A stretch of 64,000 bases of DNA from a virus: the IMG/VR virus record IMGVR_UViG_3300029240_000001; one strand, given 5' to 3'. Under the pieces are notes generated by a model. That model had not been told where the DNA came from, made no database searches, and saw only the letters and a list, made by a program, of their open reading frames with translations. Below, piece by piece: positions 35,369 to 50,242 of this stretch (position 1 is the first letter of the stretch; the number at the start of each line of letters is the position of its first letter). Both the position numbers and the translations under genes were made by a program.

Positions 35369-36343
35369 ATGACAGGCAGGACTGAAAAGGAAATTGCGTC
35401 AACTAAAAAAATGCAAGAAAAACTGAAAGAACTTCCTAAAATCTTTTCTGAATTTTATTATTATATGTGTTCAACAAAATCTTATACAACAGTTGAAAGA
35501 TATATTGCATATGTAAGGGAATTTGCAGAATTCTTGAATGATGGGGACATTCCAAATAACTTTTACAAGAGAGTTACTCCGCTAGATATTAACAAATATT
35601 TTGCGGCAATGAAGAATAAAGAAAGCGCACATGGGCATTATAATACGAGTGACAGTATTCGTGCGACAAAATGGTCTGCGCTGAATACTTTCTTTGGATT
35701 TCTTAAGAGTAATAACTATATTGCAAATAATCCAATGGAGAGAACGGAGCGTCCAAAAGTTCAGGATAGACCAGATGTCGCCTATTTGACAGAAGAAGAG
35801 ATGCAAGCAATTCTAGACAATGTAAACAAACTTGCAAGCACAAAGATGAAAAACAGAGATTTGGCAATTATTATGCTTGGACTTACAACTGGACTTCGTG
35901 TATCAGCACTTACGCAAATTGATATTAGCGATATTGATTTTGAGAATAATACTATCAAGGTTATTGAAAAGCGAGGAAAAACATGTAATATTCTTATTGG
36001 AGATAAGGTAAAGGAACAGCTCGAATTGTGGTTACAAGATAGAAAAAAATATTTTAGCATGACAGATTCCGATGCGCTGTTTATTTCTAGTTTTAAGAAA
36101 AGAATTACTAGAGATGGAATCAGGGTGATTCTAGAGAAATATAGCAAAGATGTTACAAATAAGCATGTTACTCCACATGTACTAAGGCATTCTTGCGCAA
36201 CAAATCTATATGAGAAGACAGGAGATATTTATCTTTGTGCAACAGTGCTAAATCATAAAAATATTGCTACTACCATGAGATATGCAAGTATGTCTAAAGA
36301 TAAAAAACAGAAAGCAGCAAATATTTTGAACGACATGATTTAA
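35369..36343 (+). CDS. tyrosine recombinase/integrase (XerC/D-like)
   Basis: N-terminal SAM-like core-binding region; GLRVSAL, HVLRHSCAT, LNHKNIATTMRY with the catalytic R..HxxR..Y pattern. Confidence 0.85.
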   Translation: MTGRTEKEIASTKKMQEKLKELPKIFSEFYYYMCSTKSYTTVERYIAYVREFAEFLNDGDIPNNFYKRVTPLDINKYFAAMKNKESAHGHYNTSDSIRATKWSALNTFFGFLKSNNYIANNPMERTERPKVQDRPDVAYLTEEEMQAILDNVNKLASTKMKNRDLAIIMLGLTTGLRVSALTQIDISDIDFENNTIKVIEKRGKTCNILIGDKVKEQLELWLQDRKKYFSMTDSDALFISSFKKRITRDGIRVILEKYSKDVTNKHVTPHVLRHSCATNLYEKTGDIYLCATVLNHKNIATTMRYASMSKDKKQKAANILNDMI

Positions 36344-36349
36344 TAACAT

Positions 36350-36378
36350 TTGACAGGGATAATTTTGTACTGTACAAT
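36350..36378 (+). promoter_or_regulatory. sigmaA-type promoter TTGACA-N17-TACAAT whose spacer carries the box in INVERTED orientation
   Basis: TTGACA at 36350-36355, TACAAT at 36373-36378; ATAATTTTGTACTGT at 36359-36373. Confidence 0.55.
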
Positions 36379-36415
36379 ATAAAAGAAATGAAAAACTCAC
36401 AAGGAGTGTGATTAT

Positions 36416-37336
36416 GTGTTCTATAATGAGGAGGTTAAAATACAATTCATAAACGATTATAAGAGAAGTAGAGTCGTTAATGAAACTTCATTAACTGGAA
36501 TGTTTAACAAGATATATAAATATGAAATACAAAATAAAAAAGATTGCAATAATTTTGCAATTGAAGAAATACTGGCCATGTATCGTTGCTTCAAAGCGAA
36601 ATCTGTGCACGTGCTTGAGAATTACAATGTGTATTTAAAAAGCTATGCAGCGTTTTGTATGCATTATGGTTTTGGCATGGAAAACAATTACGCAAATATT
36701 AGTAAGGCCATGCTGCAAGAATGTCTTGATGAAAATATAATTAAACAAAAGTTCTTGACAAGGGAACAGTTTGACGAGGTAGAAGACGAATTATACAACT
36801 ATACAGACAAGGCGTTGCTGGAGTTACTATGGGAAGGCATTAGTGGAAAAAGCATGGAAGATATTGTTTCGTTAAAGAGAAGTATGATAAGTGAAGACAA
36901 ACAATATATTTGTTTTGAAGACGGACGAAAAGTAAAGTTATCTGCAAAATTGTATAATTATTTAGACAAGGCATTTGCAGAAAAAGAATATATGTGCTAT
37001 GGGGTAACTGTTAGAGTTAAACAACTAATTGGAGATGATTGTTTATACAAGGAAATGGATAATGCGTATACAGTAGACTCTGATGACAAGTTTTTCCGTT
37101 GGGTATATAGAAGAATTCAGACATATAGGAAGCACGTAGGATTGCCATTGCTTACTATGAAGACAATTGCGGCGTCAGGGCTTTTATATAAAATTAAACA
37201 AGCAATGGAAAAGAATAATCTTGGGCTAAGAGAATTTTTATATACAGAGGAAGGCAAAGCATTGGCACAGCAATATGGATACAAGTTAAATTCATATGTT
37301 GATGTTATTGCCAACAAGTTTGCAAGTCTGGTGTAG
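36416..37336 (+). CDS. hypothetical protein (306 aa), GTG start
   Basis: AAGGAG 9 nt upstream of the GTG; ends in TAG followed by a hairpin and the box. Confidence 0.6.
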   Translation: MFYNEEVKIQFINDYKRSRVVNETSLTGMFNKIYKYEIQNKKDCNNFAIEEILAMYRCFKAKSVHVLENYNVYLKSYAAFCMHYGFGMENNYANISKAMLQECLDENIIKQKFLTREQFDEVEDELYNYTDKALLELLWEGISGKSMEDIVSLKRSMISEDKQYICFEDGRKVKLSAKLYNYLDKAFAEKEYMCYGVTVRVKQLIGDDCLYKEMDNAYTVDSDDKFFRWVYRRIQTYRKHVGLPLLTMKTIAASGLLYKIKQAMEKNNLGLREFLYTEEGKALAQQYGYKLNSYVDVIANKFASLV

Positions 37337-39276: not shown

Positions 39277-40287
39277 ATGGAAGAATTAAAAGAAATGAAT
39301 TCTTCCGTTGATGGGCTACAAGATACAATATATACGGAAGTAAAAGATCCATATGGATTCATTTATATCACAACGAATTTGATTGATGGCAAAAGATATT
39401 TAGGCCAAAGAAAATTCTATGGAAATTGGCAAGAATATCTTGGTAGTGGTGCAGCATTTAAACAAGCAATTGACAAATATGGAAAAGAAAATTTTGTAAG
39501 AAATGTAATTGATATTGCTTATTCTGCAGAAGAATTAAATGAAAAGGAATACCATTATAGTGTTTTCTTTAATGCTGTTGAATCTAACAATTGGTATAAT
39601 CTTGTTTATGGTGGAGGAACAACGCAAGGATGGACTCCAAGTAAAGAAACAAGAAAAAAGATATCAAAAGCTGCAAAAGAAAGACTTTCAGATCCAAATA
39701 ATCATCCAATGTATGGAAGAGTAGGATTAGTAGGCGAGAATAATCCCCAGTTTAAAGTTTCTCCAAAAGAACGCATGGATGAAGAAACATATAAACAATG
39801 GTATGAAAAACATAAATTATATTGGGCAAATCCAACAACTAAAGGCAAACATATATGGATAGGAAAACAACATCCCAGTTTAGGTAAAAAATTGTCAGAT
39901 GAACAAAAATTGAATCTATCAGAAAAAGCAAAAGAAAGATTTATAAATTCAAGCAATCATCCAATGTACGGAAAACATCACACAGAAGAAGCAAAGCAAA
40001 AGATGAGTGATTCTCGTAAAGGGAGTAATTGGTGGAAGTGTAGAAGAATATATTGTATAGAATTAAATCAAATTTTTTGGGGAGCAAAAGAAGTACAAAA
40101 TTTATATGGATTTGATCCAAGCTCTATTACAAAGTGCTGTAGAGGTAAACAAAATTATACGTATAAACATCCACAAACAGGCGAGGCATTGCATTGGTTG
40201 TATGCGGAAGATGCAATTGAAAAAGGATATATCACACAAGAAGAGTTAGATAGATATATAAATAGTTTAAAAGGTAAAGGAGACTGA
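39277..40287 (+). CDS. GIY-YIG homing endonuclease with NUMOD3 repeats and C-terminal NUMOD1-like HTH
   Basis: GFIYITTN...KRYLGQ (GIY...YIG), three HPMYG/HPSLGK...K.K.S repeats, C-terminal IYCIELNQIFWGAKEV...SITKCCRGK. Confidence 0.8.
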   Translation: MEELKEMNSSVDGLQDTIYTEVKDPYGFIYITTNLIDGKRYLGQRKFYGNWQEYLGSGAAFKQAIDKYGKENFVRNVIDIAYSAEELNEKEYHYSVFFNAVESNNWYNLVYGGGTTQGWTPSKETRKKISKAAKERLSDPNNHPMYGRVGLVGENNPQFKVSPKERMDEETYKQWYEKHKLYWANPTTKGKHIWIGKQHPSLGKKLSDEQKLNLSEKAKERFINSSNHPMYGKHHTEEAKQKMSDSRKGSNWWKCRRIYCIELNQIFWGAKEVQNLYGFDPSSITKCCRGKQNYTYKHPQTGEALHWLYAEDAIEKGYITQEELDRYINSLKGKGD

Positions 40288-45798: not shown

Positions 45799-46289
45799 GC
45801 AGCTAACTTGCTGCCATTCGAAAACCTAGAACGGACTTGCTTCGATGGTTTTGACCGATACATTGATGTGAAATAATAAAAAAATTGGTCTTCAACAATA
45901 TTTTTACTAATGCTAATAATACAGTAAAAAAGATCTAATATATGACTTGACTTAAAATTGATTAAAATTAAGATGTACATATATTTTCTAACTGTAAAGC
46001 TTAAAGTTTAAATATCAATGTTCAGAGATCAATGTTCAAAGATTATTTTTTCGTCAAAGTTTAAGTCTTAAAGTTGTAAAGAGGGCTTTTAGATAATTAT
46101 TAATTAAAATTGTGTGCCCACAAAGTTTTACAAAATCCTTGAGCAATGGTTTGGTTTCAAGTTCAATGGCCATAGGTTATCCACAAGGCTGAATGGTAGC
46201 AATACTTGTACGAAAATAGGCTAATGTGAAATAGACAGAATTTTGAGTACTAGCAGAGCTGGGCATCTCTGAAAACTGCCCATTGATAT

Positions 46290-46549: not shown

Positions 46550-46552
46550 TAT

Positions 46553-46645
46553 CCTCCTTTAGTGTAATGGTAGCACGGCGCACGCAAGGCGCTAGAGCGG
46601 TTCAACTCCGTAATGTGTTAGAGCGGTTCGATTCCGCAAGGAGGT
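46553..46645 (+). tRNA. tRNA-Cys(GCA)-like with ~26-nt extra arm and C33
   Basis: Acceptor CCTCCTT/AAGGAGG + U73; D-arm GTGT-AATGGTA-GCAC; GGCGC-ACGCAAG-GCGCT; AGAGCGGTTC occurs twice (46598, 46620); no encoded CCA. Confidence 0.5.
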
Positions 46646-46829
46646 CGTCTGGCACGGACGAAGTGCGCTGTGGTCATACAGTAAAATGACAAAGCTCATG
46701 GCCGATATGGATGGCGACAAATATGAGCGAGGCAGAACAATTAAATCTTGGGTCTGCAAGTAAGCCTGTCGGCAACAGAGGAGAGCCTTATGCTTGCTAG
46801 GTGTTCTAGATGCCTTTCTCCTCATAAAT

Positions 46830-46928
46830 GGGAACTTGGTCAAGTTGCTAAGACACTGGCGGGGACAGAATAGTGCAAACATTAAGAGCACACTGCCGGA
46901 GACACGAGTTCGAATCTCGTAGTTCCCA
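46830..46928 (+). ncRNA. tRNA-like gene (99 nt) with expanded anticodon region
   Basis: Acceptor GGGAACT/AGTTCCC 7/7, class-II-type D-arm, canonical T-arm ACGAG-TTCGAAT-CTCGT; middle is an irregular long hairpin capped by AGTGC-AAACATTAAGA-GCACT. Confidence 0.45.
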
Positions 46929-46937
46929 ACTTAATAT

Positions 46938-47022
46938 GGGTCAGTAGCGAATCGGCAAACGCAGCAGACTGTAAATCTGCCTCCTTCGGGAATAGGTGGA
47001 TCGACACCACCCTGACCCACCA
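46938..47022 (+). tRNA. tRNA-Tyr(GUA), class II
   Basis: Acceptor GGGTCAG/CTGACCC + A + CCA; GCAGA-CTGTAAA-TCTGC; variable arm TCC-TTCG-GGA; T-arm GGTGG-ATCGACA-CCACC. Confidence 0.85.
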
Positions 47023-47201
47023 AATGATAGTGAGTAGTGCAAATAGAAAAGATAAGAACGAAATAGTACCTTGTATGGTGGATAAACCTATTAATCACTT
47101 ATTGATTTTATTGGAGTCATGCACGGCTCCGCTTGCTATCATTACCATAGGTCTTTGTGGCAACTGTACGACCTTATAAACTACTAAAGTTGCAATATTA
47201 T

Positions 47202-47277
47202 GCTCCGGTAGTTTAATTGGTCAAAACGTGCGACTTATAATCGCTTGTTGGGGGATCGTGGCCCTCTCGGAGCACCA
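47202..47277 (+). tRNA. tRNA-Ile(UAU)
   Basis: Acceptor GCTCCGG/TCGGAGC + A + CCA; D-arm GTTT-AATTGGTC-AAAC; loop CTTATAA; T-arm GGGGG-ATCGTGG-CCCTC. Confidence 0.75.
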
Positions 47278-47309
47278 CATTAAATTTTACACTGAAGAAG
47301 TGATGACAT

Positions 47310-47990
47310 TTGAGTAATGACGTAATAGGAACTAGAATTGGCATTTACGATATTTTATATGAATGTAATTTTAAATCAAATGATGGACATAAATTGTACC
47401 ATGTCAAATGTTGCGAATGCGGATATGAAACTAATATGCAACTAAGACATATTGGTGATGCAAAAAAATGTACCCATATCAATAAAAATGGGACAATAAA
47501 AATGTTTAGCGCTTATACTTGGGAGAACAAAAGAATAGGCGGAATATTCCAAGGCATGATCCAAAGATGCTACAACGAGCATGATAAAAGTTATCGTTGG
47601 TATGGGGCTAAAGGAATTCAAGTCTATGATGAATGGATTAACAATCCAAAGTCCTTTGAATATTGGGCTTTAGAGAATGGTTATGCAGACGATTTAACGA
47701 TTGATAGAATTAAAGAAGATGATAATTATTGCCCTGAAAATTGTAGATGGGTTACTGGATCGAATAATGCAAAGTATAAATCCACCACAAAAATGACTAC
47801 GGTAGATGGTATATCCCATACTGGAAGAGAATGGGCAGATATTCTTCATGTTGGAACAAATGTTATAAATACAATGTTAAGAAGGTTTCCAGAAGAACAA
47901 GTAAAGGAATTCATTAAAAAGCGAAAATTAGATCCGTCAAAGCATCCAACTAGTCATCAAACTTGGTTCCAAGTTTATGAGATTTCATAA
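47310..47990 (+). CDS. HNH-type homing endonuclease embedded in the tRNA array
   Basis: 226 aa, TTG start; ...YRWYGAKGIQVYDEW...LTIDRIKEDDNYCPENCRWVT..N resembles the phage HNH_3-type DRID(N)..NY.P.NCRW core. Confidence 0.65.
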   Translation: MSNDVIGTRIGIYDILYECNFKSNDGHKLYHVKCCECGYETNMQLRHIGDAKKCTHINKNGTIKMFSAYTWENKRIGGIFQGMIQRCYNEHDKSYRWYGAKGIQVYDEWINNPKSFEYWALENGYADDLTIDRIKEDDNYCPENCRWVTGSNNAKYKSTTKMTTVDGISHTGREWADILHVGTNVINTMLRRFPEEQVKEFIKKRKLDPSKHPTSHQTWFQVYEIS

Positions 47991-48240
47991 TTCCCAGATC
48001 AAAGTCAACAACAAAGATTGCTGACCTGTCGTGTGGCAGCATATAAATGAGCGACTTAATACATTTTCCATATAGCTCCTTAAAAATTGCTTTAAGCAAA
48101 GCGTAAATGCTTATCGCTACTAATCATTAGCGGTTGTTGAAACATAAATGAAACACTGAGGTCGGAAAGGCTCCCGACGCTCCTCTTATGAGGAACCTGA
48201 GATGCAGGATACGCCGCCCTGCCAGTGTTTAAAATTATAT

Positions 48241-48311
48241 TATCGTATAGCTTAATGGGAAAGCGCCCTCACTATCAGAGGGAGATACTTGTTCGATTCA
48301 AGTTGCGTTAG
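48241..48311 (+). tRNA. tRNA-like, anticodon loop ACTATCA (UAU with C33); identity uncertain
   Basis: Acceptor TATCGTA/TGCGTTA (6/7); D-arm GCTT-AATGGGA-AAGC; CCCTC-ACTATCA-GAGGG; canonical T-arm ACTTG-TTCGATT-CAAGT; no CCA. Confidence 0.4.
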
Positions 48312-48389
48312 AAAAATGTGGATGCTATGCACGTCGCGCGCCGCCACTAAACAAAGCGTAGCTGGCGCTGTGGAAAGACACAGAGATCT

Positions 48390-48474
48390 GCAGGAGTCCC
48401 ATAGTGGTCGATTGGAGCGGTTTTGTAAGCCGCCAGCTTTGCTCACGTCGGTTCGAATCCGACCTCCTGCTCCA
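48390..48474 (+). tRNA. class-II (long variable arm) tRNA with anticodon UGU
   Basis: Acceptor GCAGGAG/CTCCTGC + U + CCA; D-arm CCA-TAGTGGTCGAT-TGG; GCGGT-TTTGTAA-GCCGC; 13-nt variable arm; T-arm GTCGG-TTCGAAT-CCGAC. Confidence 0.55.
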
Positions 48475-48596
48475 CATTGCCAGCTATCGCTGCTTGTAGT
48501 TAGTGAGTTGTTTTAGAAGCAGTAAACCCACAAGTATGGTGGGCGGCACACCAGTAGTCGTTAAGGGCGAGATCAAGATGAACTGGTACATTATAT

Positions 48597-48712
48597 GCAA
48601 GTAAGGAAGAATTGGTCTTCTCTCATTTAACAAAGCTGAGATACAAAAAGATCGCTACTTTGGAAACGTTCGCTTTGGGGAAATGTGTGTTCGAATCACA
48701 CTACTTGCTCCA
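48597..48712 (+). ncRNA. tRNA-like gene (116 nt) with 11-nt anticodon-position loop and ~43-nt extra region
   Basis: Acceptor GCAAGTA/TACTTGC 7/7 + U + CCA; D-arm GAAG-AATTGGT-CTTC; TCTCA-TTTAACAAAGC-TGAGA; canonical T-arm GTGTG-TTCGAAT-CACAC. Confidence 0.45.
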
Positions 48713-48836
48713 GCGAGGTAACGTCACTTCCATCACGTAGCACAGCGGATAGCAAATAATGAAAGAGATATGTGCACCTAGGCTCTTGTTTGAATTATTT
48801 GGTTATGATAAAGAAGGATTGGAAACCTCGCTTTAT

Positions 48837-48926
48837 GAGAGCGTAACTCAGTTGGTAGAGTTTTATAGCGTGAAGGGATATGCTATTGAATACCCTTAGT
48901 CGCCAGTTCGAGTCTGGCCGCTCTCA
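48837..48926 (+). ncRNA. tRNA-like gene (90 nt) with ~18 extra nt around the anticodon arm
   Basis: Acceptor GAGAGCG/CGCTCTC 7/7; canonical D-arm ACTC-AGTTGGTA-GAGT and T-arm GCCAG-TTCGAGT-CTGGC; interleaved ATAGC/GCTAT and AAGGG/CCCTT pairings in between. Confidence 0.45.
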
Positions 48927-50035: not shown

Positions 50036-50212
50036 AAAGACGCCGATTGGGAAGCCTGCTTTATTGTTAAGTGGAAGGATGATAAAAACCTTCCCGCTAA
50101 CTTGCACACCCAATGCAAGGAATGTGCTTGAGTCTTGGTGCATTGAAAGTCGGATATGGTGCACAATTACAAACTGGCGTTGACTGCATTGCAGCAGCGA
50201 CCACGAGATGTG

Positions 50213-50242
50213 GGAGCCTAGCAAAAACTAGGCTCCTTTTTT
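50213..50242 (+). terminator. intrinsic terminator closing the tRNA array
   Basis: GGAGCCTA-GCAAAAAC-TAGGCTCC followed by TTTTTT. Confidence 0.8.

Follow-up and report, generated by a model that had tools for sequence, protein, structure and literature searches.

We observed that three genes in the transfer RNA (tRNA) array of a phage, here called c1, c2 and c3, have the body of a tRNA and no 7-nucleotide (nt) anticodon loop. They lie in IMG/VR virus record IMGVR_UViG_3300029240_000001, of which a stretch of 64,000 nt was analysed (the window). The source is a gut phage with a genome of roughly 150 kb and a low GC content, about 36%. Judged from their sequences, c1 and c3 are members of undescribed phage RNA families. 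An extended arm in c1 and a pseudoknot in c3 replace the anticodon arm, and both modules recur in unrelated phages with compensatory base changes. We read c1, c3 and possibly c2 as putative stable, tRNA-shaped RNAs that would not decode, i.e. as tRNA mimics, and we hold this preferred reading at a little below even confidence. Neither Rfam 15 nor the phage annotation of GenBank nor the literature that could be searched was found to describe such RNAs; the words 'pseudoknot' and 'phage' are both absent from a 2020 review of non-canonical tRNAs (PMC7609411).

c1, c2 and c3 share a tRNA frame

A first-pass annotation of the window, made from the letters alone, had listed three tRNA-like genes with intact acceptor, D and T arms and expanded anticodon regions. 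We found all three elements where it had placed them, on the + strand:

46830-46928, + strand: c1; acceptor stem 46830-46836/46921-46927, D arm 46839-46854, T arm 46904-46920, 4-nt variable loop AGAC
48597-48712, + strand: c2; acceptor stem 48597-48603/48702-48708, D arm 48606-48620, T arm 48685-48701
48709-48712, + strand: 3' end of c2, encoded UCCA
48837-48926, + strand: c3; acceptor stem 48837-48843/48919-48925, D arm 48846-48861, T arm 48902-48918, variable loop AGUC 48898-48901

The three arms were also borne out, as a strict descriptor (7/7 acceptor stem, 5/5 T stem with a TTCRA loop, D stem of 3-4 base pairs (bp)) matched each gene. This descriptor had five matches in the window, namely c1, c2, c3 and two ordinary tRNAs, all on the + strand and within the array, against a mean of 0.2 matches in 100 dinucleotide shuffles. 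The feature of a decoding tRNA, a 5-bp stem with a 7-nt loop carrying U33 and a purine at position 37, was absent from c1, c2 and c3.

We further scored the genes with the Rfam tRNA model (RF00005, gathering score 29 bits). The model aligned with c3 from end to end at 43.2 bits, with 35 nt falling on its 17-position anticodon arm. The window copy of c1 reached 17.6 bits and its relatives, which have UGG in the D loop where the window has UUG, reached 51.3 bits; in the relative L004, the Rfam alignment of c1 gave a complete cloverleaf with 34 nt replacing the 7-nt loop. No Rfam tRNA match was obtained for c2 at E<=10.

c3 carries a conserved H-type pseudoknot

The first-pass annotation had noticed interleaved ATAGC/GCTAT and AAGGG/CCCTT pairings in c3. 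These form a real pseudoknot in which both helices covary, with the following parts:

48862-48897, + strand: H-type pseudoknot, replacing the anticodon arm
48862-48864, + strand: linker, UUU
48865-48869, + strand: S1a, AUAGC, pairing with S1b, GCUAU, at 48882-48886
48870-48872, + strand: loop L1, GUG
48873-48877, + strand: S2a, AAGGG, pairing with S2b, CCCUU, at 48893-48897
48878-48881, + strand: loop L2, AUAU
48887-48892, + strand: loop L3, UGAAUA

The c3-like genes follow one order: D stem, UU(U), S1a (5 nt), a variable L1 (3-6 nt), S2a (AAGGG), L2 (RUA and 1-2 nt), S1b (5 nt), L3 (UGAA and 2-3 nt), S2b (CCCUU), GGUC and the T arm. Across 58 distinct sequences, 99.1% of the cells were paired, as against 34-50% when the partners were slid by 1-3 columns. 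Double changes were seen in 19 of the 26 pairs, including all five of S1 and two of the five of S2, where the compensations were G-C to U-A (seven times) and to A-U (three times and, separately, once). The S2 variants AAUGG/CCAUU and AAAGG/CCUUU were found with a pattern that left S2 unconstrained, and the UGAA of L3 was invariant even where the pattern did not demand it. Invariant columns clustered in the loops of the module (AAGG..UA and UGAA). By nested energy evaluation, the two helices each stabilised the cloverleaf, by -3.6 and -5.3 kcal/mol.

The c3-like copies first seen by blastn were 84% identical (an unannotated faecal phage contig) and 82% identical (a relative from the phage's own clade), and both carried compensatory changes. 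A helicase 96-99% identical to that of the phage is encoded by 21 IMG/VR contigs of 87-160 kb. When 50,697 GenBank phage records were searched by megablast/blastn, a c3-like gene was found in MT836871 only, an unannotated faecal contig, while c1 and c2 had no match there. Further copies came from pattern scans of IMG/VR, of JGI/ENA metagenomes and of GTDB genomes. A covariance model (R1) built from 34 c3-like sequences and run over 0.89 Mb returned about 95 copies in 97 loci at 79-114 bits, with the window c3 at 107.2 and ordinary tRNAs at no more than 50.6.

The copies lie in unrelated contigs that measure about 20-160 kb and were derived from metagenomes of the human gut and other sources, and also in three contigs of Clostridia metagenome-assembled genomes (MAGs; Lachnospiraceae and Acutalibacteraceae). 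The genes near the c3-like copy matched phage families in both MAG contigs checked (L116, L118). Phages of ~40 kb have their c3-like gene upstream of the terminase gene and accompanied by tRNA-Gln(UUG) and/or tRNA-Trp, and at several of these loci it is the sole tRNA-like gene found by ARAGORN. ARAGORN gives the c3-like genes nine different identities.

Oversized tRNA-framed genes were also seen beside c3-like genes in unrelated phages and MAG contigs (L118:7105-7228, 124 nt; L088:11779-11875, 97 nt; L072:1892-1980, 89 nt). This suggests that further families of such genes exist.

c1 has a Glu-like body and an extended arm

When we examined c1, the region between the D arm and the variable loop folded into a two-part arm:

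46856-46899, + strand: 44-nt extended arm replacing the anticodon arm
46856-46862 with 46893-46899, + strand: outer stem, 7 bp, CUGGCGG/CUGCCGG
46863-46872 and A at 46892, + strand: internal loop, 10 nt/1 nt, containing the conserved CAGAAUA
46873-46876 with 46888-46891, + strand: inner hairpin, 4 bp, GUGC/GCAC; 5 bp in the homologue L183
46877-46887, + strand: conserved 11-nt apical loop, AAACAUUAAGA

The annotation had described two 5-bp stems capped by 11-nt loops. The 11-nt loop is present in both c1 and c2; the inner stem of the window c1 has 4 bp rather than 5, and stands on the 7-bp stem.

A scan with the D-arm pattern located a homologue of c1 at L183:6411-6511, in an unrelated 36-kb phage of 34% GC. 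This copy scores 50.5 bits as a tRNA, and the other tRNAs at its locus are only tRNA-Gln and tRNA-Met. Ten compensated pairs separate the two lineages: four in the acceptor stem, two in the 7-bp stem, one in the inner hairpin and three in the T stem. The inner hairpin differs further by one wobble change and one added pair. Kept between the lineages are the unpaired CAGAAUA, the apical AAACAUUAARA and the variable loop AGAC, and the invariant columns were concentrated in the module loops, CAGAAUA and AAACAUUAA. In the window copy, U replaces G18.

A covariance model of c1 (R2) gave 125.8 bits for the window copy and 105.3 bits for L183. Its next-best matches were tRNA-Glu(UUC) genes, at 53.7 and 45.6 bits. 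The c1 body also has a GUC/GAC D stem, A26 and a 4-nt variable loop, which we take to be typical of tRNA-Glu, and together with the R2 matches these led us to regard the body as tRNA-Glu-like.

Three other readings of the c1 insert were tried and rejected. A 13-nt direct repeat that flanks it could be taken for a target-site duplication; it is the quasi-palindromic 7-bp stem, which is compensated in L183. Pairing of the loop with the gene's own 3' trailer is not conserved in L183, and kissing between the c1 and c2 loops amounted to only 5 A/U-rich pairs. We also looked within the window for antisense targets of the apical loop, and the matches were at chance level only.

c2 is restricted to one phage clade

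The middle region of c2 has 64 nt, and two candidate helices can be drawn in it:

48622-48625/48637-48640, + strand: candidate helix S1, CUCA/UGAG
48631-48636/48672-48677, + strand: candidate helix S2, CAAAGC/GCUUUG

These can interleave as in c3; S2 never varies, and two of the few variants of the gene break S1. Position 8 is A and not U. In about twenty members of the clade the gene is 98-100% identical, a level that does not exceed that of the flanking sequence. Searches beyond the ~150-kb phage clade with nhmmer, a pattern scan, blastn and a covariance model (R3) yielded no homologue, and the c2 D-arm pattern matched only coding sequence there. The gene may be a younger, lineage-restricted member or a decaying copy.

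A tRNA mimic is the preferred reading

The first-pass annotation had offered tRNA mimics or decoys as one of several options, and this is the option that fits all the evidence, with the role itself put forward conditionally. Since a complete tRNA body with its elbow nucleotides is kept, we infer that c1 and c3 would be cut from the array transcript by RNase P and RNase Z, would be given CCA and would be as stable as a tRNA. The body would serve as a natural scaffold and recognition handle, while the module would block use by the ribosome. In c3, the anticodon arm of a Phe(GAA)-like body is locked in an H-type pseudoknot of 5 bp + 5 bp, with U-GAA in a third loop of 6-7 nt. In c1, a Glu-like body carries an extended arm in which an asymmetric internal loop separates the 7-bp stem from a 4-5 bp hairpin with the conserved 11-nt loop. 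Such mimics could bind a factor that recognises tRNA-Phe or tRNA-Glu, and might titrate, inhibit or trigger it. The factor may be a tRNA-cleaving defence nuclease of the host or another tRNA-binding protein.

A decoy role in the tRNA arms race is plausible, and it fits the RNA-repair cassette placed 3 kb downstream of the array as well as what is known of anticodon-arm nucleases. By analogy with Pnk/Rnl1 of phage T4, the cassette suggests that this phage encounters defences that cleave tRNA. Both defences of this kind and phage tRNA countermeasures have been described (PMC10264068, PMC11464382, PMC12445682, PMC13056530). A bacterial Schlafen cuts the anticodon arm, and tRNA-Phe(GAA) is among the tRNAs with significant cleavage signatures (PMC13056530).

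Several observations weigh against the mimic reading. The window copy of c1 has lost G18. No covariation was seen in c2, where two natural variants break the CUCA/UGAG stem. When the open reading frames (ORFs) within ±4 kb were clustered (19 acceptor types), no partner protein common to the c3-like lineages was found. A canonical tRNA-Phe was present in none of the 28 arrays checked, most of which have a c3-like gene, and the U-GAA and the 3' strand of S2 in c3 are exactly as in tRNA-Phe. Because of these last two points, c3 could conceivably decode or be aminoacylated.

c3 as a possible working tRNA-Phe

The main rival is indeed that c3 is a working tRNA-Phe(GAA), in which the 5' side of the anticodon loop is clamped by the pseudoknot and thereby shielded from host anticodon-arm nucleases, with c1 comparably armoured; we consider this rather unlikely, yet the best of the alternatives. 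An armoured c3 would still be charged by phenylalanyl-tRNA synthetase (PheRS) and would decode UUY, perhaps once S1 opens. The run of S2, N-U-GAA-N-N and the GGUC variable loop corresponds to the 3' half of a tRNA-Phe anticodon arm, and the invariant U-GAA abuts the strand leading into a normal variable loop. When c3-like members were de-knotted by deleting S1a with L1, and L2 with S1b minus one nt, 48 of 52 were called by ARAGORN as tRNA-Phe(GAA) with a canonical cloverleaf and four kept an 8-nt loop, an outcome that is partly by construction. De-knotted c3 had annotated phage tRNA-Phe genes among its best matches (8e-6); however, tRNA-Asn and tRNA-Lys matched about as well. The 28 arrays without a canonical tRNA-Phe would be explained, and nuclease-resistant phage tRNAs with altered anticodon arms are known (PMC10264068, PMC12445682).

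Other features of the family do not suit a decoding tRNA. The nucleotide at 'position 37' is U, a pyrimidine, in 54 of the 58 sequences. Most members have an L3 of 6 nt but four lineages one of 7 nt, and the spacing between GAA and the stem changes accordingly. The discriminator also varies (A in 33, U in 19, G in 4 and C in 2). From ribosome geometry, an extra helix at position 32 would be expected to collide with the adjacent tRNA when c3 occupies the P site. As for c1, no loop that could serve as an anticodon loop lies at the usual distance from its elbow.

A broader proposal takes in both possibilities for c3. Gut phages might carry a new class of RNAs in which a real tRNA body bears a self-locking module, acting as decoys against, or inhibitors of, the immune nucleases that cleave tRNA; or c3 might be a nuclease-proof tRNA-Phe that delivers phenylalanine. 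We hold this proposal to be less likely than not, and place it between the mimic reading and the working tRNA-Phe in likelihood. The UU(U) linker and the GAA of c3 are both invariant and mutually complementary, and in a nuclease-proof tRNA-Phe the UUU linker with GAA would be a built-in mimic of codon and anticodon.

Debris, introns and known RNA classes

We also considered that the genes are functionless debris of a recombining tRNA array, i.e. pseudogenes left by insertion, duplication or illegitimate recombination. The array is mosaic among near-identical phages, and it holds a Cys-like gene with a 26-nt duplication of the T arm, a Cys/c1 chimera (in L011) and a hairpin at 46262 that resembles a truncated tRNA. 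In addition, c2 is clade-restricted, with A8 and stem-breaking variants, and the window c1 is without G18. Against this, c1 and c3 are maintained in unrelated phages, where their module loops stay invariant amid many compensatory changes, and several ~40-kb phage loci have a c3-like gene as their sole tRNA-like gene. Since conservation across unrelated phages comes together with covariation, a pseudogene is untenable for c1 and c3, for which debris is excluded in practice; it is possible for c2. For the set as a whole we consider this explanation improbable.

The option of intron-containing pre-tRNAs, raised by the annotation, holds that the insert is cut out by an endonuclease and that the halves are rejoined by the phage ligase/Pnk; we rate it slightly lower still. 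Its appeal comes in part from the RNA ligase, nucleotidyltransferase and Pnk-HD kinase encoded at 53335-56406. The annotation was right that this module lies nearby; it is a generic tRNA-repair cassette and gives no evidence for splicing. We evaluated the option by brute force, removing one contiguous segment and requiring that a 5-bp stem, U33 and R37 be left. The c1 genes of the window and of L183 gave no solution and neither did c3, even under relaxed rules. One formal solution was obtained for c2; it is contrived, as it sets the junction within the 3' strand of the stem and leaves the anticodon AAC. The control c4, a gene of relatives, gave four.

L001:17289-17436 and L016:18294-18442 (relatives): c4, a 148-nt tRNA with an Ile-UAU- or Arg-UCU-like body

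In c4, a 75-nt structured insert lies inside the anticodon loop, and a single excision of these 75 nt restores a CUUAUAA or CUUCUAA loop. Its closing stem covaries (CGCUGCA/UGCAGCG versus CACUACA/UGUAGUG). This is the one truly intron-like case, though far too short for a group I intron. It occupies the slot of the array that in the window holds a different element, the skipping-rope RNA, in some clade relatives.

In c1-c3 bulge-helix-bulge geometry is absent. The unpaired nucleotides of the insert are the best-conserved part of both the c1 and the c3 families while the stems covary, and this argues for a functional mature structure rather than a removed spacer. An intron is thus not supported for c1 and c3. 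The annotation's remark that the inserts are too short for group I introns holds, since the extra sequence is about 17-47 nt and Rfam gave no match other than tRNA; over c1-c3, at the gathering threshold and at E<=10, only tRNA was returned, and the modules scanned alone gave noise.

The intron search of ARAGORN, which the annotation had proposed as a check, returned contrived models only for c1, c2 and c3. For c1 it called a tRNA-Ser(GGA) with an 'intron' at 38/39, and an Asn call spanned a spacer and c2. A Phe call for c3 rests on a stem with a G.A mismatch and is contradicted by the ATCGC and TTATC variants, which cannot pair with GATAT.

The last option of the annotation, RNAs like YrlA or Y RNA that tether Ro60 (Rsr), or another known tRNA-like class such as transfer-messenger RNA (tmRNA), resembles our genes only in that a non-coding RNA contains a tRNA-like domain, and can practically be dismissed: Rfam showed no match to these classes, either at the gathering threshold over the whole window or at E<=10 over 45.5-51 kb, the ARAGORN tmRNA search returned none, no TROVE/Ro60 domain was found in the 30 window ORFs scanned with Pfam (smaller ORFs being partly scanned), and the 5' and 3' ends of c1-c3 form an acceptor stem, whereas those of YrlA form the Ro-binding stem.

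Comparison with known systems

In engineered 'tRNA scaffolds', a cargo RNA replaces the anticodon arm. The modules of c1 and c3 sit exactly at this anticodon stem-loop site, and here too the body presumably gives processing and stability; unlike the scaffolds, c1 and c3 are natural, conserved genes with different bodies (Glu-like and Phe-like) and different modules. Intron-bearing tRNA genes, i.e. those with bacterial group I or archaeal bulge-helix-bulge introns, likewise have extra sequence in the anticodon region. In contrast to these, c1 and c3 have no catalytic core, no bulge-helix-bulge and no restoring excision, and their extra sequence is what is most conserved. YrlA, the tRNA-like domain of tmRNA and mascRNA are also non-coding RNAs that imitate part of a tRNA to engage tRNA-binding machinery. 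The genes c1-c3 preserve the entire body and depart from a tRNA only at the anticodon end, with no tag reading frame and no Rfam match.

In phage T4, the stable RNAs C and D are encoded among tRNA genes. The skipping-rope RNA (RF02924) is likewise structured, obscure in function and found within phage tRNA clusters, but it has no tRNA frame; it was reported with 3' terminators and associated with nearby protein genes (Weinberg et al. 2017, PMC5737381).

With phage tRNAs (RF00005), including the variants that escape defences (PMC10264068, PMC11464382, PMC12445682), our genes share the cloverleaf, the elbow nucleotides, a co-oriented array and phage origin, and c3 retains the 3' half of the anticodon arm of tRNA-Phe. 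The escape variants have point changes or a shorter stem, whereas c1 and c3 have a 44-nt arm or a pseudoknot and no 7-nt loop. Mimicry of a tRNA through an H-type pseudoknot, as in c3, is also seen in the 3' tRNA-like structure (TLS) of RNA viruses of the turnip yellow mosaic virus (TYMV) type and in pseudoknot PKI of the internal ribosome entry site in the dicistrovirus intergenic region (IGR IRES), where an anticodon-like loop pairs with a downstream strand in a topology like that of c3 S2 (PMC3517527). Those are cis parts of eukaryotic viral mRNAs or genomes, whereas c3 stands alone as a gene, has a normal acceptor stem and bears the pseudoknot in place of an anticodon arm.

tRNAs are now seen as a main battlefield on which phages meet bacterial immunity (PrrC, PARIS, OLD, retrons, Schlafens and Cas12a3). 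The counter-moves of phages known so far are repair enzymes and replacement tRNAs; conserved pseudoknot look-alikes would be a third kind, an RNA mimic, and the natural counterpart of the engineered scaffold. tRNA finders mis-call such genes, and inventories of tRNAs and codon usage in gut phages are distorted as a result. The RNA of the c3 family is small, about 90 nt, has a well-defined fold supported by covariation, and is directly testable.

The tRNA array and its neighbouring genes

The nearest cultured relative of the phage is Geobacillus virus E3, which is distant (helicase identity 32%). The tRNA array, in which all genes are co-oriented (+), covers 46.2-50.1 kb of the window, contains c1, c2 and c3, and is closed by a terminator-like hairpin at 50212-50237. 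ARAGORN called nine tRNAs in it and Rfam three further ones. Other features of the array and its surroundings are as follows:

39277-40287: GIY-YIG/SegE-like homing-endonuclease gene, upstream of the array
46262-46284, + strand: hairpin with 6-bp stem and 11-nt loop, at the head of the array
46550-46646: tRNA-Cys(GCA)-like gene, T arm tandemly duplicated (26 nt)
47310-47990: HNH endonuclease gene, a homing-endonuclease gene that interrupts the array
48151-48230: skipping-rope RNA (RF02924), within the array and directly upstream of a tRNA; Rfam 78.8 bits, E 1.8e-17
48240-48312: called tRNA with anticodon loop ACUAUCA (C33, C37); Ile or Asp in ARAGORN, depending on the copy
48390-48474: tRNA-Thr(UGU) with a 13-nt unpaired variable region
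52200-53303: class-V aminotransferase gene (cysteine-desulfurase-like), preceding the repair cassette
53335-56406: RNA-repair cassette, i.e. RNA ligase (phrog_968), RlaP-type nucleotidyltransferase and Pnk-HD kinase

The HD-domain match of the polynucleotide kinase in the cassette is weak. The 46262-46284 hairpin reads GAGC-U-GGGCA-UCU[CUGAAAA]C-UGCCC, i.e. the 3' half of a D stem and an expanded anticodon arm like that of tRNA-Phe, ending before any T arm. Its loop is invariant among relatives, the changes in its stem are one-sided only and mostly preserve wobble pairing, and its folding energy is ordinary (z = -1.1). It is probably a recombination remnant, separate from the three RNAs.

The unduplicated form of the Cys-like gene, of 68 nt, was found at L004:18295-18362. 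At L011:16679-16799 the 5' half of the Cys-like gene is joined to the 3' part of c1, and this chimera points to deletion or recombination between array members. The HNH-gene region was absent from the blastn alignments of several clade relatives, and the array looks mosaic. Two adjacent tyrosine-recombinase genes (Phage_integrase, MrpR-like) were seen at 35369-37336, in a ~150-kb phage that otherwise looks lytic.

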